From: Patescibacteria group bacterium
GTDB lineage: Bacteria; Patescibacteriota; Kazan-3B-28
Length of the DNA: 64,000 nucleotides
Direction of reading: 5' to 3'
Assembly (NCBI GenBank): GCA_041649135.1
Contig: JBAZNQ010000002.1
Coordinates: 143,702 to 207,701 of the forward strand
The notes below the pieces were generated by a model, which searched no databases, was not told the DNA's origin, and saw nothing but the letters and a program-made list of their open reading frames with translations. Of the stretch, positions 33,201-58,030 are shown in pieces. The first letter of the stretch is position 1, and every line of letters begins with the position of its first letter. The position numbers and the translations under genes are program-made.

Positions 33201-35126
33201 CGGAATCTGGGGTGCGAGCAGATCGATCGTAGTCATTGCATCCCAACTTGCTGGCGGGTCTTCCACATTATTGTTGTTGTCTGTAGCTACTGAATAGAAA
33301 GACCATGTTTCGCCATGTTTTACTGGTACGTTCCAGCTATACGGAGCAGAAGTATCCGGATTACTAGCGTCGCCCCATAATACATAGTTATCACCATCAA
33401 GACTAATATAAAGGGCAACGTCTCTTACACCGCTATTACCATCACTAGCCGTGGCAGTAACTGCTAATTTTGAGTCAAAACATCGGTCTTCAGTTGTACT
33501 ATAAGGGGAATCAGGCTTTACTACTTGTGATTCCGGCGCAGTCTTATCTTCCGATGGCGGAGTGCCACCCGTGGTGTAACCAACCGTCAGGTCATCTAAG
33601 ATTGGTGCAGTTCCGGTCGGATAAATTTTAAGATAAATAGTGTTGCCTCCTAATGGCCAACTACCCAGCACACCCGCTGGCAACAGATCACTCAATTTGG
33701 TGGCAAAGGCTGGAGCATCGGTGTCGGAAGTCTTCCAACTACCAGTAGCAGTATCGTAGTAATACCATGTAGTGCCTCCAGCAGTCAGACCAAACGCGAT
33801 TTTAATTTCGCCAGTATTTAATGCGTGATACGTTGCGGTTACGCTGGTAACAGATCCCACATGTGCTATTCCTGTCGCTGTGACCATTGAAGTATCACTT
33901 GCTACTGCAGTTGCTTTCCAAACATCCGCTGCCCCTCCAACTGTTTCGGCCGAACCAAATAGCAGTACTGTTCCAGTATCCACTAATGCGCCATTCCGGA
34001 TCGGCCCGTTAGTATCAGCAATTGCAGTATGGGAAAGCCAATGGGCGCCATTGTCTAACGTACTCACAATATTAGTAGGGTCACCAGCGGTCGCAACGGC
34101 CGCGAAGGGGATTGACTGGTAGCTTGCGAAATCCATTACTGCTGTGCCAGTACCCATTGCGGCAGAAATATCCGTCCAGTCAGCTGGGTCATTTAAAGTT
34201 CCACCTCCGCCCAAGTTAAGATTGGTAGCATAAATTGAACCGCCCATGCCGCCTACACCTCCGCCCACATACAGCCAGCCCCCGATATACGCCGCAGTTC
34301 GCAAATACTTTGGCGTTCCCGGCAGAGTTGCTTCCGACCAACCCGCTCCGCCGTTGGTGGTATAAGCTAGGTGTCCAGCATTGGCCGCCGCCGCATCGTA
34401 TCCGACCATGATAATCGTATTAGAGCTGGTGCAGATGATATCGGTCGGAGTTGGAACTATCGCAGTCATGACTGCGGTTACTCCCCAGCTCTGTCCTTTA
34501 TCAGACGAAACATAGGTGTGGCCCACATCATCTACGGCATAAGCCTTGGAGTTAGTAGTATCCCAAGTTACCGATACCCAGCCAGTAGCGCCAGCGGCCA
34601 ACGCGATCCCACTCACATTCCAGTTTGCTCCGCTATCGTCTGAATAATATGATGCTGGATTACCGGCCCCATCATCTCCTACGGCGATGAGGTCTGTGTC
34701 AGTAGTCTCGATGATCTGAAGATTATTAGTGACACCCGTAGCGACCGATGACCACGTTGCTCCACCGTCGGTAGATTTATATGCGTCTCCACCATTAGCT
34801 TCCATGGTTGCCCACAGCGTCCCGTCAGACGCATACTCTATGTTTCTAACTGCCAAAGCGGCCGGTAGGCCAGTCCCATATCCAGTTGAAGTCCAAGTGT
34901 CATAGAAATGAGCCACCCCATCGCCGGTTCCGTCGTAGTCAAAAATACTGATGTTCGTGTCTAATAGATAGTCACCAGCGGCATTAAAATCCCATGTTTG
35001 AGTTTCCGCACCCGCACGCGCTACATTTGTTCCCATCCAGCTGATCGGCAGGATACTTTGGATCACTAAAATCACAGCTGTTAAAACTGCCAGTCGCTTG
35101 CGTTGTTCAACTAAAGCTTTGAACAT
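30210..35126 (-). CDS. Giant cell-wall-anchored surface protein (1638 aa) with BNR/Asp-box (S-x-D-x-G-x-T-W) beta-propeller repeats and a C-terminal LPXTG sortase signal
   Basis: Signal peptide; Asp-boxes STDGGATWSS, SDDSGANWNV, SSDKGQSWGV, TTNGGAGWSE and LDNGAHWLS; C-terminus KRLPVTGMNGLQLILLGLTLAAAVALAWV plus a charged tail, which is a canonical LPXTG sorting signal. Confidence 0.8.
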   Translation of the reverse strand: MFKALVEQRKRLAVLTAVILVIQSILPISWMGTNVARAGAETQTWDFNAAGDYLLDTNISIFDYDGTGDGVAHFYDTWTSTGYGTGLPAALAVRNIEYASDGTLWATMEANGGDAYKSTDGGATWSSVATGVTNNLQIIETTDTDLIAVGDDGAGNPASYYSDDSGANWNVSGIALAAGATGWVSVTWDTTNSKAYAVDDVGHTYVSSDKGQSWGVTAVMTAIVPTPTDIICTSSNTIIMVGYDAAAANAGHLAYTTNGGAGWSEATLPGTPKYLRTAAYIGGWLYVGGGVGGMGGSIYATNLNLGGGGTLNDPADWTDISAAMGTGTAVMDFASYQSIPFAAVATAGDPTNIVSTLDNGAHWLSHTAIADTNGPIRNGALVDTGTVLLFGSAETVGGAADVWKATAVASDTSMVTATGIAHVGSVTSVTATYHALNTGEIKIAFGLTAGGTTWYYYDTATGSWKTSDTDAPAFATKLSDLLPAGVLGSWPLGGNTIYLKIYPTGTAPILDDLTVGYTTGGTPPSEDKTAPESQVVKPDSPYSTTEDRCFDSKLAVTATASDGNSGVRDVALYISLDGDNYVLWGDASNPDTSAPYSWNVPVKHGETWSFYSVATDNNNNVEDPPASWDAMTTIDLLAPQIPFNGGTDPRDGQGIYHNYGEPVVIAQPIRIYFSEPIVTNTFRYEFYKSADAQKTPVAGLSVVWSEGDTKIVVSHSGMDYETEYTFDITNATDEAGNQLNSNSCSYPCGALCYQPPQNDAGDHPEPEICRWGGDTSVMLCPDHIKDLQFPAPKKFTFKTQRLISPNLFPRLEVPNGPNGDGSYNTGDEAQFTLTLENLSGDDATNVAAKISIPDELTYVRTDNPGGGTMVPISEGGRVVRLEWRNSSSVPIRYGFPVVVKFTVKINIPYLGNSFNSKLTANIYDNENYTEEPDVPLPCWDSFKIAHDAVVTTSQMTVSPTTVRAGDTVTYSVSLANTGTTLGDIEFSDFVPAYDNSSGQPPIFFGPGPINFKEDSRWTIPPYYDEATQTVRAKASGVLPNSSPLTFSFEAVARGTIEVPTTITNTAYVWDALVSPPEKSEVKVTVDVEEGDPSLPLQIVYYKPALDHPDNNPLKQPIEIGFNRSVLLDDTEHPFTYSLAESGYEFTPAELEDWKPTWSEREGHSNALFTLTPPLDPANQRYGELTPGAVYKVIIKSAFDAEDKSGLKDAPKEWEFTTADPVVRIVSPAVSLVYVVVGQESVPFIVKLVDSLSEEDYLAEENISIGLRAHLGVQERETGSFWNSSKKALGENPHITIAQGSSTATFYYQDTMVSTPNFLTILALEDPNKGWPAGTKLVEVIAGERPLDSLKMGNCSTSVKVGRFSSPINITAQSVDGSTLTLPDKLYFYSSTTTGAFYDLNQNKLPYLLVAQNDENGMPQYLTTDGDQTGVTVYFKDSVTGLVSIAIADNYPQWPDTGLANAAAVMSVYKALDEEELLEELEEVEDDTGRIIDRVEIKPSETTLLPNGKQVFKAIGYDTDGKVIETLKFKWHVLIEKSGTIDLNGTNGDSSTSTFVAGKNLGTYYDDVLVATLYNGKIGYTVAIVKIADVVNYHGPKRLPVTGMNGLQLILLGLTLAAAVALAWVEHYDKTHFSKENMG

Positions 35127-35325: not shown

Positions 35326-38300
35326 TTGTCTGGGGTGAAAAAAATTACTCAATCTGTTAAAACTACTAAACCGGTGTCGTTACTGCCGAATGTTTTGCTG
35401 TTGCCAGCGCCACATCACCGGAAATGGGGCTGGCTGATCTGGACGATCATCTTGCTCGGGCTTTTACTAGGCTCGATTTGGCTACTGCGTGGGTGTAAAA
35501 CCACTGTCGTTTCTGCCGTGCAGGCCGAAGCTTTGCAGGCACATTATGGTAAATTTGATTTGCTTGACGGCGGGCCCAGTTTGACTGGTGGTCCATATAA
35601 TCTCTTGGCCCAAGGGTTACATTATTACCATGAGGTCATGCCAGATGGTCGAATTTTATTTGTTTCCGACCTGACCAACCGGCTTGATACCAGCCAAACC
35701 GATTCTGCTGCTGATCCGGCAGAGATCGCTCAACAAGTATTTATCTTCGACCCGGCTGTAAATAAATTTCAAGATTCTCCAGTATCGCTGAATGACAAAT
35801 ATGATCTCGATACCAATTTACTGATCAAATCCGGTCAGCTGGCCGTGTTCGATCTCGACCCAACTGAACTGCGCAATGCTAGTGGCAATCTTTTTAATAC
35901 CGGACCGGGGGGCGTAAATCCAAAACTGGCACTTTACGATTCACTAACCGGCGAAAAGACTGATATCAAGCCAGAGGGCGAAGACCTCGCCTCTACTCAT
36001 TTCGGTCAGCACCCCTATATTTTTGAACTTTCAGACGGTATTCTCATCGGTGCTGTCGAATATTCCCAAATCGGTAACTATGCCGCCAAGCAAACTACGG
36101 CCGTTACTTTCTTCTACGACTATCACACCCAAAAACTCACCAAGCAAGTCGGTTCGATCGGCTTACCTGACACAGATTATTACACTAGTCAACCAGTAGT
36201 GAAATTGACCGACGATCAAAGTCTAATTTTAAGCGGTGCTGATCTTTATTTGTTAGATCACAAAACCAAAACGGCTGTTTTTAAACGTCGGTTAACTGCT
36301 TATCAAAGCAACGAAATCATTTCGGCTCAAATCATCCCCAATACAACTCTGGTTTGGATCATCGCCTCTAATTCTCAAACCATCACGGCTGATTCAATTA
36401 TTTATTTATATAATTTTGAAACTAATAATTTATATTCTCACCGCTTGGGCAACCTGCCGTTAAAACAGGGGACTGTGGCGAGCGAGTACATCCCCGGCCA
36501 AAGTAGCGGCATCCCTCGTGAATCAGACGAACCAGCCGACTCCAACCAACCGGCTACCATTAATGAAGCTGAAACCAATCTTTATCACCTTCAGCCATTG
36601 CGTGATGGGACAGTTCTTATCACCGGCAGCCGTTATTATGATTTGCCATGGAGTTTTGGTCTGACTACATTATTGAAAAATCAATGGCTCGACCGAGCTG
36701 ACCAAGCAACCACCGCCGACATTGATCCCGCCAATAACTACGCTGCCCAACTTGCTGCCAATTTAGCAGACAGCAGCTCGGCCTACAATTGTACGATCCA
36801 AGATTCGATCTTATTGTCAGACGGTCGGGTACTGTTTGCCGGTTGTCGGTGGTTCACCTACACTCCCGCCGCTTCTAAAACATCCACTCAAACTAATAAC
36901 GCCAATACTTTTGCCAGCCAATTAGGTCAAGTTGGTCATTGGACTGACGGCGGGAAATTGCTAGTGGGCGATGCCGAAAAAACAACTAATGATGAGGAAT
37001 ATAGTTTAGTTACTGATGCCAATCCCAAGTTCGGTATCCCATATGCTCTTCCAAATGGCAAAGTCCTGTTTGTTAATCCGGTTTTGGAGAAGCAACAAAA
37101 CGAGTGGGTTAATACTGATGTATTTGGCCAAGTCTACGATCCGGCTACCAGTCGCAGCCAATGGGTAACATCGTCAAACATCATCGGCAAAAAAGTCCCT
37201 TACACTAATGGCGTTACTGACAGCAAAGGCAACGTCCATTTCTTTGACACTCTCAAAGATGAGGAACTCATTTATTACGCCAACAGCGATCAGTTAGTTT
37301 TGCGTTCTCTCGTTGGCCAAGACTATGGTGACGGTGTGTATAAACCTGATTCTGCGACTGCCTTTGCTGGCCTGCCGGTAGCAGTCGATGACAAGATCTT
37401 TTTCTTTGATGGTCAAACTGTCGTGGTGTTCAATATCAAAAACGGACAATACTCCGACATCGAGAAACAGCGCGAAGCCGCTTGGTTGGAGAAACATCCC
37501 AAAGATAATGTTTCACAAGAGGTGATGGACGAACTTAATTCTGGACTCCCGATCTTTGATGCTACCTGTACTGTCAGCGATCCAACTGCTCGGTCGAAAA
37601 ATCTTTTTGGTGGTGTGTCATCGGGTAGCAAAGAGGTTTTATGCGGGGTGGAAAGCGCTCTTTATTTGGGCAACCACCGCATTCTACTTGCCGGCGGTAA
37701 TCAATTAAAAATTTATAATTATCAATCCACCAAAACCGAAGCTTTGCCAGACTTGGAGAACATACTTAATATTCGTCAGCTGTTCCGAATGTCCGATGGA
37801 CGGGTGGCGCTGGTTGGTCAAGCCACTCTTCCTAACGGCGAAACTCTGCGTTCCGGCCAACCCGATACCGTTAAAACTCAAGTCATTGAAATTCTAAACA
37901 TCAACACCCAAACTGTTAGTGATCCGATCACTAACCCTCATTTCCCGATGGGTGGAACTATGGACATTAGCTACGACGTTTGGAGTTTGCCCAACGATCG
38001 GCTCTTGTTTGCTGCCCAACTCGGCACTCGCTTATCACTATATGATCTACAACGACATTGTTGGCTAAATCCGCCGGAAGCCTTGGTTAATCTTGGCTAC
38101 GCTAACAATGATTTAATTACGCAATTATCTGACCGCCCGACCATTATTAAAATTGCTACCAAACTAAGCTACGTCGACTATACCAAAGAAACTTTGGCCA
38201 CAGACACCACTAGCCAAAGTGATGTTACAGTTTTACCAGCCGACGCCGTCGAGCTGTTCATCCCCGAAACTGGCCCGTGGGGGTATTACGACTCAACGGT

Positions 38301-38415
38301 TTTTCGCATGAGTTGGTGGCTCTGGTTTTTGACTCTCCAACTGGTCCAAGCTTTTGCCGGCGGTGCTGTAATTATTGCTAAAAAACTTCGTCGCCGTTTT
38401 ATCATCCCGCTCTAG
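35326..38415 (+). CDS. Large (1029 aa) membrane protein with N- and C-terminal TM anchors and a beta-rich extracytoplasmic region; hypothetical
   Basis: TTG or GTG start (no ATG near the 5' end); TM segments at WGWLIWTIILLGLLLGSIWLL and WWLWFLTLQLVQAFAGGAVIIA. Confidence 0.65.
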   Translation: MSGVKKITQSVKTTKPVSLLPNVLLLPAPHHRKWGWLIWTIILLGLLLGSIWLLRGCKTTVVSAVQAEALQAHYGKFDLLDGGPSLTGGPYNLLAQGLHYYHEVMPDGRILFVSDLTNRLDTSQTDSAADPAEIAQQVFIFDPAVNKFQDSPVSLNDKYDLDTNLLIKSGQLAVFDLDPTELRNASGNLFNTGPGGVNPKLALYDSLTGEKTDIKPEGEDLASTHFGQHPYIFELSDGILIGAVEYSQIGNYAAKQTTAVTFFYDYHTQKLTKQVGSIGLPDTDYYTSQPVVKLTDDQSLILSGADLYLLDHKTKTAVFKRRLTAYQSNEIISAQIIPNTTLVWIIASNSQTITADSIIYLYNFETNNLYSHRLGNLPLKQGTVASEYIPGQSSGIPRESDEPADSNQPATINEAETNLYHLQPLRDGTVLITGSRYYDLPWSFGLTTLLKNQWLDRADQATTADIDPANNYAAQLAANLADSSSAYNCTIQDSILLSDGRVLFAGCRWFTYTPAASKTSTQTNNANTFASQLGQVGHWTDGGKLLVGDAEKTTNDEEYSLVTDANPKFGIPYALPNGKVLFVNPVLEKQQNEWVNTDVFGQVYDPATSRSQWVTSSNIIGKKVPYTNGVTDSKGNVHFFDTLKDEELIYYANSDQLVLRSLVGQDYGDGVYKPDSATAFAGLPVAVDDKIFFFDGQTVVVFNIKNGQYSDIEKQREAAWLEKHPKDNVSQEVMDELNSGLPIFDATCTVSDPTARSKNLFGGVSSGSKEVLCGVESALYLGNHRILLAGGNQLKIYNYQSTKTEALPDLENILNIRQLFRMSDGRVALVGQATLPNGETLRSGQPDTVKTQVIEILNINTQTVSDPITNPHFPMGGTMDISYDVWSLPNDRLLFAAQLGTRLSLYDLQRHCWLNPPEALVNLGYANNDLITQLSDRPTIIKIATKLSYVDYTKETLATDTTSQSDVTVLPADAVELFIPETGPWGYYDSTVFRMSWWLWFLTLQLVQAFAGGAVIIAKKLRRRFIIPL

Positions 38416-38600: not shown

Positions 38601-38970
38601 GGGGCTGTCTAGCTTCGACGGGGAACCTTGATTTCTAGATATTGCATGTCGTTTGCGCTCGAGAAACGTAAAATAACGAGCAAACTTACAAATGCCAACG
38701 CATTTGGCGGTCGTCTTCAGACCGCAACCGCAGTAGCCTAATTGTTACTGCCATCGTCATCTGACTCGCTTAACGGCCGGAACCGACGGTGTAACTTTAG
38801 TTAAGCTGCTGCAATTACGGTCGCTGTAATTGTTTAAGACTAAAGCGGCTTGCCTTGCTGTTGCTTTGTTGGCTTGAGGATAGCAGGGGACACCAATCAA
38901 ACCAACTACACATGTAGTAATGTCTAGACGTCGTTTCTCGGACGGGGGTGCGAATCCCCCCAGCTCCACC
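38601..38970 (+). ncRNA. ssrA: tmRNA (transfer-messenger RNA, SsrA)
   Basis: 5' end GGGGCTGTCTAGCTTCGACGGGG matches the E. coli GGGGCUGAUUCUGGAUUCGACGGG. 3' end GGACGGGGGTGCGAATCCCCCAGCTCCACCA matches the E. coli GGACGCGGGUUCAACUCCCGCCAGCUCCACCA. An internal tag reading frame ends ..AFGGRLQTATAVA followed by TAA. smpB is located 1 kb downstream. Confidence 0.8.
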
Positions 38971-38989
38971 AACCTTCGCCTCCTTAATT

Positions 38990-39441: not shown

Positions 39442-39545
39442 ATCTCCTTTGTGGGACTGGTTTTTTATTTGACAGCAAGGTGCAGTTGGAATATAATGTG
39501 CCCATCACGGGGGCTCTGATGCCCCTTACTTTGGAGGTGGTGCAA

Positions 39546-39968
39546 ATGATGAGTCGTATCACTGCCGCCGAGATTTTTACCCACCCAGAAGACCTTTGTC
39601 TCATCGTCTTTCAGCCGAAGGGACAACAAAAATGGGGGGTACAAATAGCACGCGGCAAGGGACACAATTACAAGATGATGCTGGATAACGGCATCGATCA
39701 GCCACCCCACTGGGACAGTCGTCAGGCTGCCGTGGATGGCATCTGTGAAATACTTTCCTTCGCCGTTGAGGCAGCGACAAAGGAAATGCAGGAACCCTCT
39801 TCTCTTTTGGCAGCGGTGTCTAATCCCAAAGGCCTGAAAGAGGAAGAGATGTGGAACTGCCTCAAAGCCGAGGACATCCAAGAAATTAAGGAGCGGTTTA
39901 CCAAAGCGGATGCAGTAGATACCTCCAAGGTTCCACTCACACGCCTTGCAACGGCAACCACTTCCTAA
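39546..39968 (+). CDS. Hypothetical protein (140 aa), GC-rich
   Basis: GGAGGTGG RBS upstream of the ATG at 39546; no family recognised. The overlapping minus-strand ORF 39465..39881 is the alternative reading. Confidence 0.35.
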   Translation: MMSRITAAEIFTHPEDLCLIVFQPKGQQKWGVQIARGKGHNYKMMLDNGIDQPPHWDSRQAAVDGICEILSFAVEAATKEMQEPSSLLAAVSNPKGLKEEEMWNCLKAEDIQEIKERFTKADAVDTSKVPLTRLATATTS

Positions 39969-40867: not shown

Positions 40868-43192
40868 TTACTTCATCGGCAGTCTGTACACCGCAGTTCC
40901 CGAAGTCAGATAAATAAATCCTCCCACCTCATCAACAAACAGATTGCTTGGGTTGCTGATGTTGCCATAGATGTATTGAGCCAAATAACCGCCCTCTTTG
41001 TCGTAAACCAATACGCGGCTGTTGGTTGAGTCTACCAGATACAGCTTACTGTCCGCGTTGGTGTAAATCTTGGTAATGTTACCAAATCCCGGATACGGTG
41101 ACGGTACTGCTTCTAGCTGGAATTGGGTTTCACTTCCGCCAGTATATTTCTTGACCATGTTATTCGGGAACAGCATGTACACACTGCCGTCAATCGCAAA
41201 CTCGGTTGCGCCAGCCAAACTGACTGCGCTACCTTCAAAATACGGGGCAACTTTGGTGTAGCCTTCTGGCACCGTTTGATACTTCCAAATCTGATTATTA
41301 GCTACGTCTAGGAAATACAATTTGTTGGTATACGCGATCAACTGGTCAGCATTACTCCAGTCGCCTGCGTCTAGTGCCTTGCCAGTTAAACTATTATTAT
41401 CCAAATTCAGGCTGTAGAGATTCGGTGGGGTAGTGTAGAAAATAATTTCTTTGTCCGACACCTGACCCACCAACTTCAATTTTTTATTGTCGCTCACTAG
41501 CGAATTTACAATCGCCACATCACTACTGGTAGACTTCAGTTTGTAAACCTTGTTGTTATCCGGATCAATCGCGTAAACGTTACCGCCCAAGACGGTAATC
41601 GGTCCAACCTTCACTTGATTAGTCGTCTCGCTCCCAGTATTTAATTGGGAGGTCAAAACATTAAAATCGGCCAATGGCTGAATATCGTTGAACCGTTTTA
41701 CATGGTTAACGGTATCGAGTTGTCCTTCCAATTCCGCCACCAACGCAGTTGCTTGGTCTTTGGTTTTGCGGTTAGACGTTGCCGATTGGGCTAACAAGTA
41801 AGCTTCTGCCAGCAAGTTTCTGGCCTTAGCGCTATCTTCATAAATCAATGCTGCTTGAGCTTCATCTCGTTTTTGTTGAGCTTCTGCCAAGGCGACAGTG
41901 GCTGTTTTGCCACCGACTTTGCCGATTGCTCCACGCGACAATCCGATAGTTGAAAACACTACTATCAACACTAATCCAGCCACAATTCCGATCAAAATCT
42001 GGTTGCCTTTCGGATGACGCTTAATTACTTTCACTCCTTTAGTAACGGTTCTCACTACCCAATCGATTGCTACTAGTCCAGCGGCACCAGCTACTCGCAA
42101 CATCTGCCAAGCCACTTTGCCGGCTCGATTAACCTGTTTGGAATCAATTTTTAATTTGTCCCGATAATCTCCGAAATTCACTCCGTTCTTCAAACCTTCA
42201 AGCGAGGGACGGGAAATCTTCAATTGGGGCAAGCGTACCTTATATGATCCTCCGTCTTCGGTTTCTTCGGCTTCGTCAATCACTAATTCTTCTCTGTCCG
42301 ATGCTGATTCCTTGGTCTCTTGGACCATCGGTATCTCCGGCTCTTCTTCCTTGGTGTCAATGGCTTGCTCAACGGTTTTTTCTTTATCAATTGCCGGCGC
42401 TCCACCCAAAAAGCCTGACCGCCGATGGGTCTGGACTTCTGACGGTGTGCCAATCCAATTTTCGCTTGGTTCAGTTTCTTCTTCGGCTTGAGCTAATAAT
42501 TCCGGCAAAGAAAACTCGGCCACCAGCACGCTGGTGTGATTGATCTCTGATTCTTGTTCCAGCAAAGTCGCCAATTTTTTAGCCGCTTGGGCTGGGGTAT
42601 GATTATCCATCAGCCGTTTTAGCTTTTCAATTGAAACATAGTAAAACAGCTCCGAGGTGCTCACCACCAGCTTATCACTGACTTCAATTTCACCTTCGAC
42701 TAAATTCATCAAGGTTTCTTCTGGGCGGTAGGTCTCGCCGGGGGTATACATCCCCTTAGATAAATTAGTCAGCGCTCCGCTTCGCAGTAAGTGTATTTCT
42801 GCTGTACCACGTTGAACGATATGAACTTCTTTTCCACTTACCGCGGCAATTACTGCGTTAAATTTGCCAATCCAATCTTTCTCGCCCTGCTTGGCAATTG
42901 CCATTAGCTCATCGTTGGCTGCCTTTAACGCATTTTCAAAACTCTCGCCAGCCGAGAGCTCCAAGTCGCTGTAATATTCTTCCTTAATAATATCGATTAA
43001 ATTGTAGGCGATATCTGCCGTCAGGGGACTAGGACTGCCGATGTCGATAATAAAATACAGACTACCGTGCTGTTTCTCGTTAGCGTCGTCTGGCTCATAT
43101 GCCAACGCCGTCGAAAAACCGCCGCGAGCTTTCTGATGCGACAAAACTTTACCAATTCTGGTTTCCAATCGTTGTTGAGTAGAGACGGTCAT
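40868..43192 (-). CDS. Large membrane protein: N-terminal cytoplasmic PPM/SpoIIE-like domain (tentative), a TM segment, and a C-terminal beta-propeller (NHL/YVTN-like) domain
   Basis: I place the start at the ATG at 43192 (MTVSTQQ), preceded by a TATAAT-like box; the track start at 43249 is less likely. TM at ILIGIVAGLVLIVVFSTIGL. The C-terminal repeats are propeller-like. Confidence 0.6.
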   Translation of the reverse strand: MTVSTQQRLETRIGKVLSHQKARGGFSTALAYEPDDANEKQHGSLYFIIDIGSPSPLTADIAYNLIDIIKEEYYSDLELSAGESFENALKAANDELMAIAKQGEKDWIGKFNAVIAAVSGKEVHIVQRGTAEIHLLRSGALTNLSKGMYTPGETYRPEETLMNLVEGEIEVSDKLVVSTSELFYYVSIEKLKRLMDNHTPAQAAKKLATLLEQESEINHTSVLVAEFSLPELLAQAEEETEPSENWIGTPSEVQTHRRSGFLGGAPAIDKEKTVEQAIDTKEEEPEIPMVQETKESASDREELVIDEAEETEDGGSYKVRLPQLKISRPSLEGLKNGVNFGDYRDKLKIDSKQVNRAGKVAWQMLRVAGAAGLVAIDWVVRTVTKGVKVIKRHPKGNQILIGIVAGLVLIVVFSTIGLSRGAIGKVGGKTATVALAEAQQKRDEAQAALIYEDSAKARNLLAEAYLLAQSATSNRKTKDQATALVAELEGQLDTVNHVKRFNDIQPLADFNVLTSQLNTGSETTNQVKVGPITVLGGNVYAIDPDNNKVYKLKSTSSDVAIVNSLVSDNKKLKLVGQVSDKEIIFYTTPPNLYSLNLDNNSLTGKALDAGDWSNADQLIAYTNKLYFLDVANNQIWKYQTVPEGYTKVAPYFEGSAVSLAGATEFAIDGSVYMLFPNNMVKKYTGGSETQFQLEAVPSPYPGFGNITKIYTNADSKLYLVDSTNSRVLVYDKEGGYLAQYIYGNISNPSNLFVDEVGGFIYLTSGTAVYRLPMK

Positions 43193-43306
43193 AGCTTTGA
43201 TTCCAACAAACCTATTATAACGACAGGGAAACTTACTTGCCAATCGCATTTTTGGCGACGTTCCCCCTGACGCTCTATGATAAGATGACTACAGGAGGAA
43301 GGCAAT

Positions 43307-50967: not shown

Positions 50968-51162
50968 ATGTTAGAGCAGTTGTCTGAACAACTCCGCCAC
51001 CAAGAGGAAGAAACTATCCGCCCCAATCCATTTTATGGGCAGGTCGCTTTGGTATTAGCCCTAGGCCTGATTTTAACCGGCTGGATGGTGTACGGAAAAG
51101 TCTCTGCCCAGATTGACCAGCTGATCCAAAAGCCAGTTTTGGCAATGGAAATCACCAATTAA
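50968..51162 (+). CDS. Small hypothetical membrane protein (64 aa)
   Basis: ORF with one TM segment (VALVLALGLILTGWMVY); no RBS. Confidence 0.25.
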   Translation: MLEQLSEQLRHQEEETIRPNPFYGQVALVLALGLILTGWMVYGKVSAQIDQLIQKPVLAMEITN

Positions 51163-51177
51163 TTACAAAACCACATC

Positions 51178-51210
51178 GTCATTCTGGTAATTCTGCTGTA
51201 CAGCAGAAGC
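51178..51210. repeat. MITE/REP-like hairpin core
   Basis: GTCATTCTGGTAATTCTGCTGTACAGCAGAAGCATCCAGAATC. Confidence 0.5.
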
Positions 51211-51272
51211 ATCCAGAATCTTATAAAGAAATATCTAGTTTTTCTCACCTGCCAATCTACTAACCATCTCTT

Positions 51273-51683
51273 ATGAACAATCACGACTTCAATCAATTAC
51301 CAATTCTACCAGATCCGTTGGAAAATCAGGCAACTCCTTTGCCAATTTCCACCGAACCACAAGTCGTCAACCAACGATCACTTCTCGCGACTCGCGACTC
51401 TTCACTCGCGACTCTCCATCCTCGTCGCAATTACCTTCGAGCGGGTCTAATTTTTGGTGGCGCGATCGCTATCCTGACGTTGGTTTTATTCGGTTCCCGT
51501 TTGATCGATCTACTGAATTTGCGCGGAACCAAAGCCGGCCAGTCAGTAATTTTAAATAGTGATAACTTTGTTGATGGAAATTGGTTTGAAAAAGATAGCG
51601 ACGGCAATCTTCATGAGGGGGACAGTCGCGTTCTATTTGAAGTCGTTGACGGTAAATTAGTACTGAATAACCCCGGTCAGTAA
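51273..51683 (+). CDS. Membrane-anchored small hypothetical protein whose N-terminal region is partly encoded by the GTCGCGA-type repeat
   Basis: SLLATRDSSLATLHP (same peptide module as in the mnmA insertion), then a TM segment (GLIFGGAIAILTLVLFG), then a small extracytoplasmic domain. Confidence 0.45.
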   Translation: MNNHDFNQLPILPDPLENQATPLPISTEPQVVNQRSLLATRDSSLATLHPRRNYLRAGLIFGGAIAILTLVLFGSRLIDLLNLRGTKAGQSVILNSDNFVDGNWFEKDSDGNLHEGDSRVLFEVVDGKLVLNNPGQ

Positions 51684-51697
51684 TTTTTGGTTCACAC

Positions 51698-54574
51698 ATG
51701 TCAACAATAAAACAAAAATTTAATTCTCTGATCCACCGCTATCCATGGGCGCTTCAGGTTAGTTTAGCTTTAGTAATCGCGCTTACTGCCATTGGTTCAT
51801 CCACCAACTTTGCCCATGCCGGATCCGGTCGGGTAGAAGTGATTGCCCCAACTGAAAAAGTCTGGTTTACCGGAATGTCGCCTGCTAGCACTATGCCGAT
51901 CTTATGGACTTTTGAAAGCGACACGATCGTTTCTTCTTCCACTACTGCCGACATCTGGCTTCAGGCTCAAACTACCAACGGTAACTGGTATAACAAATTG
52001 CCAATTGCCAGTAGCGTCCTCATGAATTCTAATCCTACCACCTATACTTGGGGGCTGGATGACGTGGCATTTGCTGGCGAAAGACAACGGATCGCCGTGA
52101 TCGTTTCTGAAACCAGTAACGGACAAACTTCCAAGTACACTGACTACAGCAACTTGCTTTACATTCGACAAGTTGGTGTTCATTTCATCACTCCATCTGC
52201 CGGCAGTCGGCTAGGCATGCATGAACTTTATCAAGTTAAATTTTACTGGTCTGATTTTGTGTCTCCCGTTACCCCATTTGCGGTCTTGGAGTACAAGGCA
52301 TCGGATGGTAGCTGGCAAGAAATTACCAAAAAGACTTATACCGCTTTTCTTGAAGATGCCATTGAATTGCGTTATTTCAACTGGGATACCCCGATATCCT
52401 CGGAAGAGTTTACCAGCCGGTTACGTCTGTCACTTTATACTCTGGACAACGACGGCGCCTACACGGTGTTATATGACCGAGCTGAAAGCGACGCGTTTAT
52501 CATTGCCCCCGGTATCGATTTTAGCGCTACTGGCATTGAACTAGTCCCGCAATCCAACCCTGCTGTAACAGACAGTTTGACTGATGTTGCAGTCGGTCTG
52601 CATTTTATCAATCGGAATCTTGGCATTACCGGTTTGGTAAAACTGTACGTTAGCATTCAGTTTTATGCCAACAATACTAGCAACGAAACAATTAATCCTC
52701 CCGTCGGCGATCTCATCACTCGTACTGTAACTATTAATACCGATAGCTTCGATAGTCAGGGGGATCTAACGGCTGTGGTCGAAGATGTGCCGATCCTAGC
52801 CCGCTACGCTTACATCAGAAGCCATATTGATCACGACAATTCCTATTTAGAATCTGACGAGAACAACAACTGGTACCCAAGCGACCAACCATCATTCTTC
52901 GAGGTCCCAAATTATTCTAGCGGAATTCCCATTGTCGGCGATCCATTATCCGCCACTTATTATTCTCAAAAACTGACGGAAGGATTAGTCGTTAATGGTA
53001 TCGGCCCGATCCGATTCGATAATTTTCAGGCCAATTTTAGTCAAACAGCCACCGATTCCGATGTTGACTTTGCGATTGGTTTCTTTAACGCTAGCGACCA
53101 ACCGGTTTATAACCAGACAGCAGACGGTTCAAGTTTTGATAGTGAAGGTTATTACTTAATTCCCGAAGCCGATGAATATCAATTGGCTGACGGATTTAAT
53201 CTGCCGACTACTTTCTTCGGGCAAACTAGCAAAGCCAACTTGGTGCGGTCGATCCGATTCCGCATCTTTATGGCTAGCGCAGATATTACTGCCACCGATC
53301 AGCCTTGGGTCCAAAGTGTTACGTTGCAATACACTGCCGCGGATACCACCACGATCGGTGTCATCAATTTTGTTGATCCTGCTGGTACTGATGGCAATGT
53401 TACCAAATCTATCCCTCGCGGTGGTACTGGCAGTTTTGATATCAAGATTACCCCCATGAACGATTTTGTCGGACAGGCAGTCATCAGAATTAGCGCCATT
53501 ACCCAAGTGGGTGGCAACGGCGATGATGTTACCGGCCAGATTCTGGCCATCGACATTCCTCAAACCGTTACTATCCCAACGGGTATCACTGAAGTTACCA
53601 CTACTGTTCACTTTACGGTTGCCAACGATCCAACTCTTTCGGGTGTCTATCAGTTTGAATTGAGCGGCTATGACACCCAGAATTCAAATGCCATCTTAAC
53701 TCCAACTGCTTTGGGCCGAATTAATATTAGCGGTGAAACCGGACCATTCAGTTTAGAAATTACTCCAACTACTACCGAAGTCATTCGTGGACAAAGCACC
53801 ACTTACGATATCACTCTGACTCGTGCCGACGATTTTACTGGTACTGTTACGCTCTCTCACAACCTCGCCACCATCTTCGGAACTGGTGTAACCGGCACCT
53901 TCTTTGATGACAATACTTTGAGTGGTAGCGACACTAGCGCCACTTTGACTGTTACCACCACTAATTCCGCCGCTTTAACTGATGCCCAATTATTTACCGT
54001 TACTGGTGCTGCTACGAACCAATCAGATCAAATCGCCACCGCTCAACTTGCTATTATCAGCTCGGATGATGCTCTGACATTGACCCTGACAATTCCAGTT
54101 GAGGGCGGCTTACCAACTGATTTGACCAAGCCACATCCTCGCTTTACTGTCCGGATTTATGATGGTCTGATCAACAAACTCGAACGAGTTGGCTTAAGCG
54201 CTAATGCTCAAGGGAAAGTTGTTTTAACTACGACTCGCACTACCTTGCCGGATAAAACTTACACGATCTACGCGCGCACCACTCGTCACCTATGGGGCAA
54301 ATCTACTACTCCCGCTACTTTAATTATCGATAGTGCCCATGATAGTTACACCGTTACTTTTCCAACATTGCAGGCTGGTGATCTAGACACCAATAACAAA
54401 GTCAACATGCAAGATATTAGTATCGACCAAACTTGGGCCAAGTACGGTCAAACTTTACTCGACGCTTTGGGCGACTTTAATAACGACGGCAAGATCAACA
54501 TCAATGACATCAGTTTTATCACTAACTTCAATTACGGCAAGTGGGGCGACCAGTTGCCAGATGAAACCCGTTAA
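51698..54574 (+). CDS. Large secreted protein (958 aa) with a C-terminal type-I dockerin domain
   Basis: Signal peptide; C-terminus GDLDTNNKVNMQDISIDQTWAKYG...GDFNNDGKININDISFITNF gives two canonical Ca-binding dockerin repeats (DxDxNxKVNxxD, DxNxDGxINxxD). Confidence 0.75.
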   Translation: MSTIKQKFNSLIHRYPWALQVSLALVIALTAIGSSTNFAHAGSGRVEVIAPTEKVWFTGMSPASTMPILWTFESDTIVSSSTTADIWLQAQTTNGNWYNKLPIASSVLMNSNPTTYTWGLDDVAFAGERQRIAVIVSETSNGQTSKYTDYSNLLYIRQVGVHFITPSAGSRLGMHELYQVKFYWSDFVSPVTPFAVLEYKASDGSWQEITKKTYTAFLEDAIELRYFNWDTPISSEEFTSRLRLSLYTLDNDGAYTVLYDRAESDAFIIAPGIDFSATGIELVPQSNPAVTDSLTDVAVGLHFINRNLGITGLVKLYVSIQFYANNTSNETINPPVGDLITRTVTINTDSFDSQGDLTAVVEDVPILARYAYIRSHIDHDNSYLESDENNNWYPSDQPSFFEVPNYSSGIPIVGDPLSATYYSQKLTEGLVVNGIGPIRFDNFQANFSQTATDSDVDFAIGFFNASDQPVYNQTADGSSFDSEGYYLIPEADEYQLADGFNLPTTFFGQTSKANLVRSIRFRIFMASADITATDQPWVQSVTLQYTAADTTTIGVINFVDPAGTDGNVTKSIPRGGTGSFDIKITPMNDFVGQAVIRISAITQVGGNGDDVTGQILAIDIPQTVTIPTGITEVTTTVHFTVANDPTLSGVYQFELSGYDTQNSNAILTPTALGRINISGETGPFSLEITPTTTEVIRGQSTTYDITLTRADDFTGTVTLSHNLATIFGTGVTGTFFDDNTLSGSDTSATLTVTTTNSAALTDAQLFTVTGAATNQSDQIATAQLAIISSDDALTLTLTIPVEGGLPTDLTKPHPRFTVRIYDGLINKLERVGLSANAQGKVVLTTTRTTLPDKTYTIYARTTRHLWGKSTTPATLIIDSAHDSYTVTFPTLQAGDLDTNNKVNMQDISIDQTWAKYGQTLLDALGDFNNDGKININDISFITNFNYGKWGDQLPDETR

Positions 54575-54662
54575 AGCCACTAGCCACTAGCCACTAGACT
54601 GTCTATTACCACCCATAATTAATCTTCCGCAACTATTCACTTTTAACTTTTCACTATCTTCC

Positions 54663-55853
54663 ATGGACCAACTCTTAAACCAACTACCATCACCCAATCT
54701 TCGCCACATTAATTGGCGGGGGATGGGATTGGCTCTTGTCGGCTTGATCGTGGCTGGTGGACTCTTAGTTTATTCTGGTGGGCTAGATCAGCTTTCTCAT
54801 ATCTTTGGTTCCAAGGCTGGGACTGACCAAACTCGGGTTTTGGCTGGTGTTGCTAATTTAACTGGTAGTGTTGGTGCTGAAAGCTGGGTGATCGGCACTT
54901 TGCCGGCCAGTTTCGACAATACTGCCGCTTTTGCCAACTCTGCCGATGTGCCGGGCTTCATGATACCGGAATCAAGTGCTACCGGATTTATTATGCCAGT
55001 CGTTCCTGACGCCGATGCTGATGCTGATGCTGATGCTGATGCTGATGCTGATGCTGATGCTGATGTCGCATTAATCTCTCCCAGCTATCGCTACCTCTCT
55101 CCAGCGCTTGATTTAGGTGACGGTCAACTCGAACTTTCCCAAATCGACATCTATGCTTATCTGCCAACCTCTACTGCGGTTGAGCTTGGTTATCGAGCTA
55201 GTGATGACTTGATGACACTTACCACCGCGACTATTCAATCATTCTCGGAAATTAATTTTGTCCCAGTTGCTGATGTAACTGATGTCCAAGTCGCTACTAT
55301 CTTAATGAGCCAATCAACGGGACGGTATTCCCAAGTCTCTGCTAATTTCTCCGCTTCTGGTGCTGAAAATCAGCCAGCAATTTATGGCTGGAAAATTCAA
55401 TATAGCGCTACGAGCACTACCGATGCAGACACGATCACCGACCTAACTGCCAATATTGATTCCACTACCGACAATACTATTACCATCGCTTATAGTGGCG
55501 GACCGGCTATTCCGACTGATGCCAAAATCGAGTTACTCGGTAGCGACATTGCTCTCAACCCGATGTATGGTCAAGACCAGCTTGACCTGACTTCTCACGA
55601 TGGTCAGTACACCTTTACTTTGTCTCTACCGACTGGCGCCTATACGATCATGGCTACTAGCGCCACTACCAAACCGATCATTGTTCCATTTATGCTGATC
55701 GCTGGTAAAGCCGCTAATATCGCTATTGGTGCCTTCGAATTGGCTCAAACTAGCTTCAATGACAGTCTGACTACCAATCCAGCCGACCTAAACCATGATG
55801 GGGTAGTTAACACTCTGGATGTCCAATTACTCTTTGAACAGTATGGTAAGTAA
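54663..55853 (+). CDS. Secreted or membrane-anchored protein with a (DA)n low-complexity tract and a C-terminal dockerin-like repeat
   Basis: N-terminal TM/signal; DADADADADADADADADADV encoded by (GATGCT)9; C-terminal ADLNHDGVVNTLDVQLLFEQYGK (dockerin-type Ca-binding segment). Confidence 0.65.
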   Translation: MDQLLNQLPSPNLRHINWRGMGLALVGLIVAGGLLVYSGGLDQLSHIFGSKAGTDQTRVLAGVANLTGSVGAESWVIGTLPASFDNTAAFANSADVPGFMIPESSATGFIMPVVPDADADADADADADADADADVALISPSYRYLSPALDLGDGQLELSQIDIYAYLPTSTAVELGYRASDDLMTLTTATIQSFSEINFVPVADVTDVQVATILMSQSTGRYSQVSANFSASGAENQPAIYGWKIQYSATSTTDADTITDLTANIDSTTDNTITIAYSGGPAIPTDAKIELLGSDIALNPMYGQDQLDLTSHDGQYTFTLSLPTGAYTIMATSATTKPIIVPFMLIAGKAANIAIGAFELAQTSFNDSLTTNPADLNHDGVVNTLDVQLLFEQYGK

Positions 55854-55919
55854 ACCTTGACAGAAAGAGGAAAGTGTAGTATAATAAAATAATCATTTGG
55901 CACCGAAACCAAAATAAAA

Positions 55920-56918
55920 ATGAAAAACTTGCTCAAGTCCAACCTGATGATAATGTATCTGGTAGCCGCTCTACCAGTTTTGGCTTACGCCACTATCGCC
56001 AATGCCGCCACTACTGCCGAAATGTTATTCGTGCCTGCTAGCGGTACTGTTGCGATCAATGGCAGCGATCAATTTACCGTCGATATTCAGGTCAAGATCG
56101 GTACTGGCAATGAATCGGCTGGAGCTGACGCAGTTGTTCAATTTGATACGGCTGATTTAGAATTTATTAGTGCTGAAAAAACCACCACCGGTAATCCAAC
56201 GGGATTCTACGGTAGCAATGGCTTATTTACTAGCACTCCTGCTGCCACCGCTAATTCTACTGGTGTGGTAGAGATTGGTCGGACTGCTGACCCGGGTAGC
56301 TATGCTACCGGTACCGGCATTATGGCCACTTTGACATTCAAATCAAAAGTTGCGGTCGGTAGTCAAATTAATTTAGATTTCGACTTTACCGCCGGTGTTA
56401 CTACCGACAGTAATGTCGCCGGTAGTGAAGGTGGTGTCGATCTGCTTAATAGCGTTACCGATGCCGTGCTGACTATTGCCGAAGGCTCCACTACTACCCC
56501 AGCTATCACTGCTATCAGCCCGACTCACGGAGATAAATCTCTGGCTCAATCAATTGTTATTACTGGTACTAATTTCGGGACGCAAGGTACCAATTCGAAA
56601 GTTTATATCGGTACCAAATTAGCTACCGTGTCAGCGTGGAGCGATACTCAAATTACTATTCAGGTGCCATCTGAACCAGATCTAACCGCCAGTAGCACTC
56701 GTCAGATCAAAGTCCATCGTGATGATGCTCAAGAAGCTACTTACACCGGCTACACTTACGATCTACCGCTACCAGAGAACGGTCCGGAAGTCTTTATCTA
56801 TTTCGGTCTTGCCATGTCCGCCTTCGGTCTGGCTGGTGTGTCGTATCAAAAGTTATTCGGTGGCAAACCAAAGGCCGATGAAATGTTAAATTCAGAATTA
56901 AACGATAGTAACTTATAA
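55920..56918 (+). CDS. Membrane-anchored scaffold-like protein: signal peptide, cohesin-like domain, IPT/TIG-like domain, C-terminal TM anchor
   Basis: FTVDIQVKIGTGNESAGADAVVQFDTADLEFISAEKTTTGNPTG...IMATLTFKSKVAVGSQINLDFDF is cohesin-like; AITAISPTHGDKSLAQSIVITGTNFGTQ...ITIQVPS is IPT/TIG-like; C-terminal VFIYFGLAMSAFGLAGV plus KK. Confidence 0.6.
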   Translation: MKNLLKSNLMIMYLVAALPVLAYATIANAATTAEMLFVPASGTVAINGSDQFTVDIQVKIGTGNESAGADAVVQFDTADLEFISAEKTTTGNPTGFYGSNGLFTSTPAATANSTGVVEIGRTADPGSYATGTGIMATLTFKSKVAVGSQINLDFDFTAGVTTDSNVAGSEGGVDLLNSVTDAVLTIAEGSTTTPAITAISPTHGDKSLAQSIVITGTNFGTQGTNSKVYIGTKLATVSAWSDTQITIQVPSEPDLTASSTRQIKVHRDDAQEATYTGYTYDLPLPENGPEVFIYFGLAMSAFGLAGVSYQKLFGGKPKADEMLNSELNDSNL

Positions 56919-56927
56919 ATTACAATT

Positions 56928-57383
56928 ATGGCAATCGAATCCGGATATCCGTCGGAATACCCACGTCAAGAACAACCAAAGTCTGAACGAGAAAGACTAG
57001 ATATGGCCGTAGCAGAGACAGAGGGTAAAATACGACACATGCTAGATGTTGTTCCAGACAGCGCCCTTCTTGGTGTCGGGTCTTATGAGCTAGCAGTTTC
57101 CTATAATAAGAGAGTAATTGATAGGCTGCGAGCTGAACTCGAAGACCGAAAGCGACGCAGAGATGAACTCGATGGCCAGACTCGACAGGAATCAGAAGTT
57201 GAACAAACTACCGCTTCAAGCACCAAAGAACAGACAAGTGGTGAGGCTGGGGGAGAAGTGACAACTCAAGCTGGCGACGCTGTAGAGGTACAATCGTCTT
57301 CAGAAGCAGCGGAAATCAAAGCGGCAGAACAAACCCTAGAAAATCTTTATAACGATTCCGAAGCTGGCGGCCCGGCTAGCTAA
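56928..57383 (+). CDS. Acidic coiled-coil hypothetical protein
   Basis: ORF only; Glu/Ala-rich. Confidence 0.4.
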   Translation: MAIESGYPSEYPRQEQPKSERERLDMAVAETEGKIRHMLDVVPDSALLGVGSYELAVSYNKRVIDRLRAELEDRKRRRDELDGQTRQESEVEQTTASSTKEQTSGEAGGEVTTQAGDAVEVQSSSEAAEIKAAEQTLENLYNDSEAGGPAS

Positions 57384-57433: not shown

Positions 57434-58030
57434 ATGGATTTCGAACAAGGACAATTGGGCTCGGAAGATGACAATGAATTTCGGCCGGACGGAAGTGCTA
57501 AAGAAGGTTACACTTCGCATGACGAACAACATGACTTACCAACCGAAAAACAACCAGGATCTTCAGAGGATGAGCAGAAGAGAGAAGCTGAAGAAGCTGA
57601 AAGAGCTCGGGTTAGAGATTTGTCCGAGGTGGAGCTGATTCGAGAGATGAGTGTTTGTACTGATCAACTAGCAGAGCTCGGTCAACTCGATGAATCATAT
57701 GCTGATGTTGTTGCCAATCCTGGGCGTGAAGGTGATTTTCAGATCCTTGTAGATGAGGATAGACGCAGAACCCAAGAACTCGGCGAGAAATTTATTGCTG
57801 AAGCCCGTGACAAACAACAAGGAAGAGGCTATTTTGATAGCAGGATTGCAGTTGTGGAAGTCACACTTGTCGCACGAGAAGCTCGGGCTGAATTTTCATC
57901 AATCTCCGACAAGGTAATCAGAGCAGCGACGACACGTGAGGTCAGGAGCAGGAACGAGCGTCTTCGTGCCGAAGCCCGTCGTAAGTATCTTGGTGCTGTT
58001 GCAGCTTATCAGTCGCTGTCCAGAGCGTAG
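57434..58030 (+). CDS. Acidic hypothetical protein
   Basis: ORF only; a highly charged N-terminus followed by Arg-rich helices. Confidence 0.4.
   Translation: MDFEQGQLGSEDDNEFRPDGSAKEGYTSHDEQHDLPTEKQPGSSEDEQKREAEEAERARVRDLSEVELIREMSVCTDQLAELGQLDESYADVVANPGREGDFQILVDEDRRRTQELGEKFIAEARDKQQGRGYFDSRIAVVEVTLVAREARAEFSSISDKVIRAATTREVRSRNERLRAEARRKYLGAVAAYQSLSRA

Follow-up and report, generated by a model that had tools for sequence, protein, structure and literature searches.

The stretch of DNA analysed here, referred to as the window, comprises 64,000 nt of the genome of a Patescibacteria group bacterium (GenBank assembly GCA_041649135.1, contig JBAZNQ010000002.1, positions 143,702 to 207,701 of the forward strand). 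At 50968-56918 it holds five consecutive genes, here named Z, A, B, C, and D (Table 1); B encodes a protein ending in a dockerin, C a protein ending in a single dockerin-type repeat, and D a protein with a cohesin. A sequence-only reading of this DNA had described a locus of three open reading frames (ORFs), B, C, and D, at 51698-56918. These ORFs were confirmed, with the same boundaries and all on the plus strand, and the extent of the locus was revised, the conserved unit being the five genes that include the two small membrane-protein genes, Z and A, upstream of B. It is likely that these genes form an operon whose products assemble, by way of cohesin and dockerin, into a non-enzymatic structure at the cell surface of this ultra-small, uncultured member of the Patescibacteria, or Candidate Phyla Radiation (CPR). 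The structure probably serves adhesion, not cellulose degradation.

Table 1. Features of the five-gene cassette and its promoters, in window positions.
Feature	Position	Strand	Description
Promoter P1	50900..50928	+	Perfect sigma-70 consensus TTGACA-17-TATAAT, 40 nt 5′ of the Z start codon
Gene Z	50968..51162	+	64 aa, small membrane protein; orthologues of 65-93 aa at the same position
Gene A	51273..51683	+	136 aa: N-terminal tail of ~55 aa, one transmembrane segment, LLNLRGTKAG juxtamembrane motif, ectodomain of ~50 aa
A juxtamembrane motif	51522..51539	+	L-x2-(F/L)-G-x-x-A-(G/S)
Gene B	51698..54574	+	958 aa, secreted, all-beta, non-catalytic, C-terminal two-repeat dockerin
B middle domain	52925..53347	+	Residues ~410-550, beta-rich, conserved
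B pre-dockerin beta-sandwich	54080..54367	+	Residues ~795-890, ...RHLWGKS...TFPTLQAG, abuts the dockerin without a linker
B dockerin	54374..54571	+	Residues 893-958, two Ca loops, helix after each
B loop 1	54380..54415	+	DLDTNNKVNMQD
B loop 2	54473..54508	+	DFNNDGKININD
Gene C	54663..55853	+	396 aa: N-terminal transmembrane segment, IFGSKAG motif, beta-rich body, single C-terminal F-hand
C juxtamembrane motif	54804..54821	+	IFGSKAG; L-x2-(F/L)-G-x-x-A-(G/S)
(CTGATG)x10 hexanucleotide repeat	55006..55065	+	In frame inside C, encodes (DA)n; Tandem Repeats Finder score 106
C half-dockerin	55785..55850	+	Loop and one helix, VQLLFEQYGK, then stop codon
C loop (single)	55785..55820	+	DLNHDGVVNTLD
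Promoter P2	55857..55885	+	Perfect sigma-70 consensus, C-D intergenic, 35 nt 5′ of the D start codon
Gene D	55920..56918	+	332 aa: signal peptide (1-29), cohesin, TIG, sorting-signal-like tail
D cohesin	56007..56489	+	Residues ~30-190; Pfam, PDB profile, AlphaFold2/Foldseek
D IPT/TIG immunoglobulin-like stalk	56499..56759	+	Residues 194-280, Pfam TIG E=1.6e-14
D sorting-signal-like tail	56769..56846	+	LPENG (56769-56783), hydrophobic helix (56790-56846)

A six-frame scan of the 64 kb for the 12-residue calcium (Ca) loop of dockerins gave three matches only, and all of the motifs quoted in the sequence-only reading were present where it had placed them. Two are in B and one is in C, within the last ~65 codons of these genes and directly upstream of the sole cohesin. 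The chance expectation is 0.01-0.02, with a maximum of 1, from 200 nucleotide shuffles and 200 residue shuffles. Both B loops have D/N at positions 1, 3, 5, 9, and 12, the Ca-ligand positions of the dockerin consensus, and the loop starts are 31 residues apart. The isolated 74-aa C-terminus of B scores 24.4 bits against Pfam Dockerin_1 (PF00404; gathering score 22.9), and this family matches in all seven of the orthologous B C-termini. In a profile search of the PDB the B dockerin matches 2y3n_B (5.5e-7) and 5k39_B (9.7e-6), aligned across both repeats, and in a single-sequence search its top match is 2jnk. That the 958-aa protein ends in two dockerin Ca-binding repeats, as originally proposed, is therefore borne out, and B carries a true two-repeat dockerin.

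The beta-sandwich that abuts the dockerin is strongly conserved in the B orthologues, at T854, Y855, R860, R863, H864, L865, and W866. A profile of the whole of B aligns this module together with the dockerin to the dyads of X-module and dockerin (X-Doc) in 2b59_B, 4u3s_B, and 4wi0_B (E=8.5e-4 to 0.047), reaching the X-modules of 4u3s_B and 4wi0_B only at E~0.01-0.05. Because the alignment score is dominated by the dockerin, homology of the pre-dockerin module to the X-module is not established by this alignment, and an X-module-like nature of the module is put forward as a lead.

Conservation is unevenly distributed along B. Following a predicted signal peptide (residues 1-41, with cleavage likely at AHA/G), residues 51-400 have 5-15% identity to the orthologues with many indels, and the total length of B ranges from 642 to 1264 aa; residues ~50-400 are a hypervariable passenger. 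Residues 451-550, by comparison, have ~38% identity and few gaps. The middle domain to which these belong has invariant F521, R522, M525, and P536, with the consensus FRFRIxM...PWVxSxTLxY, and no match in Pfam or the PDB. Residues 551-800 (19-30% identity, many gaps) hold immunoglobulin-like (Ig-like) repeats in apparently variable number, and residues 851-958, the pre-dockerin module and dockerin, have 40-60% identity. The conserved plug and anchor ends with a fast-evolving distal body are the pattern expected of a docked adhesin or recognition protein.

Annotation of the passenger, by which the sequence-only reading proposed to see what is being displayed, gave no catalytic family. In B itself, Pfam identifies only a weak CARDB match and Dockerin_1, with TIG in the passengers of some orthologues. 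No glycoside hydrolase, carbohydrate-binding module (CBM), peptidase, or other catalytic family was found by Pfam in eight B orthologues and 10 members of the C family, and profile searches of B and C against the PDB found nothing beyond the dockerin region. Likewise, there are no carbohydrate-active enzymes among the other large proteins of the 64-kb window. The earlier statement that there is no sign of cellulosomal enzymes thus agrees with the absence of glycoside hydrolases, carbohydrate esterases, polysaccharide lyases, and CBMs from B, C, D, their orthologues, and these other large proteins. Compared with a cellulosome, the cassette has one cohesin, no dockerin-borne carbohydrate-active enzymes, and no CBM.

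Protein C ends in one dockerin-type repeat (F-hand). A profile of this F-hand from five orthologues matches each repeat of the dockerin 2y3n_B (whole-sequence E=2.2e-14), and there is a weak direct match to the group-2 dockerin 9gvb_B (E=0.0079). On Dockerin_1, the match of the C family is confined to the second repeat (model positions 28-56 of 57), and the C F-hand aligns to the second repeat of B (hhalign E=2.8e-4, probability 41%). The family was gathered by a full HMMER scan of 1.84 billion representative proteins from which the (DA)n repeat of C was omitted, and consists of ~30 representatives of 274-413 aa (~30 clusters at 50% identity). A word-indexed homologue search with C including the repeat returned none; the (DA)n probably swamped the word index. 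Exactly one loop is present in all 28 true members, 20-34 aa from the C-terminus, and two tandem F-hand repeats are found neither in the window protein nor in any of these 28. As there are 10 residues after the loop, there is no room for a second helix in C. Having one loop and matching Pfam positions 28-56 only, C is therefore a single-repeat (truncated) dockerin and not a canonical one. The second protein had been called dockerin-bearing in the sequence-only reading, which also named the lack of a second Ca-binding segment as a refutation; the dockerin-type loop stands, while the second repeat is missing throughout the family. The N- and C-terminal ends of C are more conserved (46-47%) than its body (21-29%), and positions 10/11 of the loop are Thr-Leu. 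A shared B/C domain beyond the dockerin was sought by BLASTP and hhalign and rejected, the F-hand alone being in common.

For D, Pfam Cohesin (PF00963) matches residues 50-165 with E=0.0017. There are 27 homologues of D besides itself, and of the 24 that were aligned 16 have the Cohesin match (E<=0.01), the best at 1.6e-10. The family profile matches the Acetivibrio cellulolyticus cohesin 5nrm_A at 1.9e-6. An AlphaFold2 model of D, based on this family alignment, has a mean predicted local distance difference test score (pLDDT) of 84, with 85-98 across both domains (residues 31-190 for the cohesin), and shows the elongated beta-sandwich (jelly-roll) fold of ~140-150 residues that is expected of cohesins. 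Foldseek matches to this model in the PDB are nearly all cohesins (probability 1.00, E 1e-10 to 1e-6, target TM-score 0.64-0.77 for single-module chains), with 2w1n at the top. Against type-I cohesins the target TM-score is 0.72-0.77, versus 0.55-0.59 against the type-III cohesin of ScaE (2zf9). The cohesin reported for 55920-56918 is therefore upheld at the level of the family and the fold, and the remaining parts of the architecture given for this protein, a signal peptide (predicted cleavage ...ATIANA/AT), an IPT/TIG domain, and a C-terminal hydrophobic segment, were all found.

A short helix lies between two central strands of the cohesin in the D model, at residues 108-114 (56241-56261). 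In the type-II and type-III cohesins that partner X-Doc dyads, a helix characteristically lies between strands 6 and 7, and the two strands in D may be these; Foldseek ranks type I highest.

The TIG profile of D matches domain D of CGTase at 8.9e-12. At the position of the TIG, D homologues have extra or multiple Ig-like inserts (P0012, P0018-P0024), or, in one case (P0011), a different sequence with no TIG match; this variability fits a spacer role for the TIG.

The tail of D continues after the 19-residue hydrophobic helix with QKLFGGKPK (K-x4-K-x-K) and a 14-aa acidic extension. Nine close orthologues all keep L284, P285, G288, P289, and E290 (L-P-x-x-G-P-E) unchanged, and distant homologues have variants of the motif ending in [TSN]G (for example LDKTG, LDQSG, and LVDNG), followed by a transmembrane segment and a KRR tail. 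A sortase is present in more than half of CPR genomes (PMC6744442). Combined with the LPXTG-like tail of D and two other such signals in the window, this makes sortase-mediated wall attachment plausible, and D looks as though it is anchored by an LPXTG-type sortase signal instead of a plain transmembrane helix. NCBIfam gave no LPXTG-anchor match for D. D had been described as membrane-anchored; the C-terminal hydrophobic helix is there, and in place of a plain transmembrane anchor it is probably part of a sorting signal (LPENG, helix, basic residues).

The two other signals are on giant orphan surface proteins encoded divergently at 30210-35126 (minus strand, 1638 aa) and 35326-38415 (plus strand, 1029 aa), which end in LPVTG with a transmembrane segment and IPETG with a transmembrane segment and KKLRRRF, respectively. 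Sortilin-Vps10 and DUF11 match the larger protein weakly, and the 1029-aa protein has no Pfam match. Both are candidates for further sortase substrates.

Comparison of loci supports the cassette as a unit. The order of small transmembrane gene(s), B, C, and D is framed on its upstream side by L31, accompanied by prfA and usually by prmC, and on its downstream side by Obg, and the B-C-D linkage is kept in at least 10 Patescibacteria contigs. The syntenic loci are the window, L001/L005, L002, L003, L004, L006, L007, and the more distant L036 and L037, with B-C-D alone visible on the short contig L038. L001/L005 is a complete chromosome of 560 kb (OY968788.1), so that the cassette is present in a genome of this size, and L006 and L007 are recorded as uncultured Candidatus Saccharibacteria, in which neighbouring cassette genes overlap or abut. 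Synteny persists where the identity of D drops to 30-41%, and the pattern of two loops in B and one loop in C is constant across the homologous loci. A locus search with a narrower D alignment gave just three species representatives in which D is full-length; its remaining 28 loci were TIG-only matches in unrelated phyla and were left out.

Two ORFs follow D on the plus strand, starting 10 nt after it, 56928-57383 (151 aa) and 57434-58030 (198 aa). Neither of their products, which are acidic and probably coiled-coil, has a signal peptide or a family match. Both ORFs were considered as cassette members and rejected, since none of the homologous loci that extend to this point has them; because Obg follows D there directly, or after a single inserted gene in one locus, these ORFs are outside the cassette. 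They look like a genome-specific insertion and are possibly co-transcribed with D.

Orthologues of Z are present in L003, L004, L006, L007, and L037, and Z has no family match. For A, nine orthologues were compared. By hhalign (probability 92%, E=6.6e-7), the transmembrane segment and motif of A share homology with the N-terminal end of C. In both proteins the motif is ~10-15 residues after the transmembrane segment, with its G and A invariant, and it is found in nearly all members of the C family. This juxtamembrane motif may mark a site of processing of the signal-peptidase type, or it may form an interaction helix. In PHROGs and NCBIfam the cassette proteins had no meaningful matches.

Perfect TTGACA-17-TATAAT sites occur three times in the 64-kb window, versus 0.04 expected, and two of the three front Z and D. 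With P1 before Z and P2 before D, two strong transcription units, Z-A-B-C and D, are therefore suggested. The third site, at 39469-39497 on the plus strand, is just 5′ of a GTG-start ORF (39480-39968), and an ORF on the minus strand has its end within the site. The (DA)n insertion encoded by the hexanucleotide repeat in C is specific to the present genome, being absent from all four aligned orthologues, and the length of the tract could vary between strains. In the 88-nt spacer between B and C there is also a perfect 7-nt tandem repeat, AGCCACT x3.3 (54575-54597, plus strand), directly after the B stop codon.

It is proposed that Z, A, B, and C are transcribed from P1, and D from its own P2. 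D would be exported via Sec and held at the envelope by its LPXTG-like signal, through a covalent, sortase-made bond with the wall or through retention by its transmembrane helix, with the TIG stalk holding the single cohesin away from the envelope. B, secreted via a cleavable signal peptide, would dock on this cohesin through its Ca-dependent two-repeat dockerin, which may be buttressed by the abutting beta-sandwich, and would thus display its long all-beta passenger, the hypervariable distal ~350 residues of which may be an adhesin or host-recognition tip. The half-dockerin of C, related to the second repeat of B, would bind the same cohesin, beside B or instead of it. As C, A, and possibly Z share an N-terminal transmembrane segment and juxtamembrane module, they may stay membrane-embedded and tether the complex there, in which case C would bridge the membrane and D. 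Alternatively, C may be cleaved at its conserved ...x-x-A/(G,S) site.

A number of results weigh against this assembly. In whole-protein Pfam scans the dockerin matches score 14.4 and 15.4 (gathering score 22.9) and the cohesin of D scores 19.0 bits (gathering score 24.1); since these single-sequence scores are below gathering, the domain calls were tested at the family level. The AlphaFold2 model of full-length B, from a four-row alignment, is poor (mean pLDDT 39.9), and neither the displayed domains nor the idea of an X-module is supported by it. There is one cohesin, that of D, for two different ligands, B and C. The half-dockerin of C is a loop and one helix, lacking the second C-terminal helix of the group-2 dockerin RfDoc2, and may be too small for binding alone. 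The N-terminus of C may stay on as an anchor or may be cut off as a signal peptide (site ...SKA/G). In the sorting motif of D, N replaces the canonical T and an unusually long acidic tail follows, and neither Pfam nor a TLxTC-type motif revealed a sortase in the window, which covers only 64 kb of the genome, or in the sequences flanking the homologous loci.

The modules could also be real without interacting, the cohesin being a beta-sandwich spacer and the F-hands Ca-binding stabilizing caps, on independently anchored proteins that are merely co-regulated. The passages of PMC8542988 that cite Peer et al. 2009 describe cohesin- and dockerin-like modules as widespread outside cellulosomes and often without demonstrated partners. 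The single-sequence hidden Markov model scores are weak, and anchoring could do without the cohesin, because a hydrophobic segment is found at the N-terminus of each of B, C, A, and Z. This explanation is nevertheless unlikely, given that the F-hand ends are the best-conserved parts of B and C while the bodies drift, that dockerin-type loops occur nowhere else in the window, and that B, C, and D stay adjacent down to 30% identity; furthermore, B would need a retention device, because its signal peptide is plausibly cleavable. Somewhat less probable still is an envelope-bridging or surface-layer-like complex, in which architecture of the envelope is primary and not adhesion. Membrane-held C, with A and Z, would plug its half-dockerin into wall-linked D, strapping membrane to wall, or the complex would be a surface-layer base that carries B. 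The transmembrane and juxtamembrane module common to A and C across the family is in keeping with this, as are the position of the cassette among housekeeping genes, its retention in a 560-kb genome, and the strong consensus promoters, which suggest abundant products. The hypervariable distal region of B fits recognition of a ligand or host better than a lattice, however, and C could be released by a signal peptidase acting at the invariant small residue of ...G-x-x-A/(G,S), the motif that follows the transmembrane segment. The C family is also rare (~30 clusters at 50% identity) and is therefore not a general component of the CPR envelope.

Cohesin-dockerin pairs classically organize enzymes, and for uncultured Cloacimonadota there is a proposal of cellulosome-like complexes (PMC8542988). 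A miniature degradative complex would have B, C, or both as unrecognized enzymes, such as glycoside hydrolases or peptidases, on a scaffoldin. The B middle domain and the C body match no known fold, which leaves room for this, but neither the eight B orthologues and 10 C-family members nor the PDB profiles gave a catalytic family, D has a single cohesin and not an array, the window has no other dockerin-type loop, and B is predicted, by its low-confidence AlphaFold model, to be all-beta repeats. Such a complex is thus very improbable. The chances of a sortase-assembled or donor-strand pilus operon, in which B and C would be pilins and D the subunit at the base or anchor, are slimmer again. D does have an LPXTG-like signal and Ig-like domains, and the CPR-specific Pam pilus has Ig-like pilins and C-terminally transmembrane-anchored accessory proteins (bioRxiv 10.64898/2026.03.03.709456). 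Against this, B and C end in F-hands and lack C-terminal sorting signals, there is no sortase adjacent, and the Pam operon is beside ATP synthase genes and includes chaperone-like components absent here. Identity with the Pam operon itself is rejected on account of this neighbourhood and these components.

The usual picture of CPR/Patescibacteria is of cells attached to other microbes. To our knowledge, the molecules that hold them to their hosts are mostly unknown. The cassette is small, conserved, probably strongly expressed, and retained in a 560-kb genome, and since a variable tip would be shown through a well-understood and tractable connector it is a concrete candidate for host attachment. 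All five of its proteins are annotated as "hypothetical" or "IPT/TIG domain-containing". The C family, in turn, is an independent natural single-repeat dockerin that is family-wide, with only two other natural cases in the recent literature, and would bear on the minimal functional dockerin and on the design of short docking tags. A bolder version of the proposed assembly, as yet doubtful, is that a clade of ultra-small CPR bacteria built its core host-attachment organelle from cohesin-dockerin parts, with a sortase-sorted single cohesin simultaneously holding a full X-Doc-type adhesin, its tip evolving rapidly, and a membrane-tethered minimal half-dockerin protein. If true, this would be a new enzyme-free docking architecture from membrane to wall to host, C would be the most minimal natural dockerin known (one loop, one helix), and its family would be the first natural half-dockerin family outside cellulosome-producing Firmicutes, by the published count of two earlier cases.

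The remainder of the window is made up of housekeeping genes and large orphan surface proteins. The large ORFs at 13828-18477 (plus strand, 1549 aa), 18702-20231 (plus strand, 509 aa), and 40868-43249 (minus strand, 793 aa) have no Pfam match at E<=0.001, and a neighbouring protein of 406 aa has an FN3 domain; this is typical dark-matter surface content for CPR. There is a tmRNA gene at 38601-38971 on the plus strand (Rfam 143.8 bits, tag peptide ANAFGGRLQTATAVA), and the window also has seven tRNA genes, dispersed over 24.5-28.5 kb and at 59.7 kb.

A full-text literature search found no description of a cohesin-dockerin system of this kind in CPR/Patescibacteria. Cohesin and dockerin proteins have reportedly been seen in Omnitrophota and in anaerobic methanotrophic (ANME) archaea. 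A surface structure recently described from CPR is the Pam pilus, whose operon encodes the PamA/B pilins, PamC/D chaperones, and PamR anchor (bioRxiv 10.64898/2026.03.03.709456). Like the cassette it is a CPR-restricted operon for a surface structure, with Ig-like or beta-sandwich proteins, some of which have a C-terminal transmembrane helix, but it assembles by donor-strand exchange instead of cohesin-dockerin pairing, and its neighbourhood is ATP synthase instead of L31 and Obg. In Ca. Stygibacter (Cloacimonadota), dockerins are found on GH18, GH57, and peptidases, together with a scaffoldin with tandem cohesins, in metagenomic data read as a surface assembly (PMC8542988); the cassette, in contrast, is a compact, syntenic, and enzyme-free operon with a single cohesin.

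Non-cellulosomal pairing is also known from the toxins of Clostridium perfringens (NagH FIVAR-Doc and NagJ/GH84C Coh; 2ozn, 2jnk, 2w1n, and 2jh2), in which a cohesin is likewise followed by an Ig/FN3-like module. These pairs join secreted glycoside-hydrolase toxins, whereas in the cassette there are no enzymes, the cohesin would be anchored to the cell, and one partner has a half-dockerin. The type-II anchoring of Clostridium thermocellum (CipA X-Doc with SdbA/OlpB/Orf2p; 2b59 and 3kcp) shares the beta-sandwich before the dockerin and the anchoring cohesin at the surface, and the B profile aligns to 2b59_B and 3kcp_A; it differs in that anchoring is by surface-layer homology (SLH) domains and the cargo is an enzyme-laden scaffoldin.

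The closest parallel is the ScaE hub of Ruminococcus flavefaciens. ScaE, an LPXTG-anchored single cohesin, has as its partners the X-Doc dyads of two proteins, ScaB and the non-catalytic adhesin CttA, the latter encoded in the same gene cluster (PMC5301203), and it also binds naturally truncated single-repeat dockerins of group 2, two per cohesin at once, which resemble the C-terminal repeat of the full ScaE-binding dockerins; the authors of that study knew of only one other natural truncated dockerin (PMC12270676). The two systems differ in host, a CPR bacterium here and a Firmicute there, and the cassette is without cellulosomal enzymes, scaffoldin arrays, and CBMs. The cohesin model of D is nearer to type I than to ScaE by the TM-scores given above, D has a TIG stalk and LPENG in place of LPXTG, and the cassette adds the small transmembrane proteins Z and A, the N-terminal anchor of C being paralogous to that of A. 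Likewise, the C half-dockerin is shorter than RfDoc2, with no second C-terminal helix and no Gly-Arg pair at loop positions 10/11. In both systems, however, there is a single cohesin on a protein whose C-terminus has an LPXTG-type (ScaE) or LPXTG-like (D) signal, a non-catalytic partner, predicted in the case of B, in which a beta-sandwich abuts the dockerin (CttA and B), a gene cluster that includes anchor and adhesin partner together, and a second class of partner, predicted in the case of C, whose dockerin is a lone repeat akin to the C-terminal one of full dockerins (the group-2 dockerins and C, which aligns to the second repeat of B). Judged by its sequence, C resembles the group-2 dockerins in working principle and lies outside their homology group. 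The cohesin-dockerin logic of the cassette is familiar; its setting in the CPR and its family-wide half-dockerin are not.

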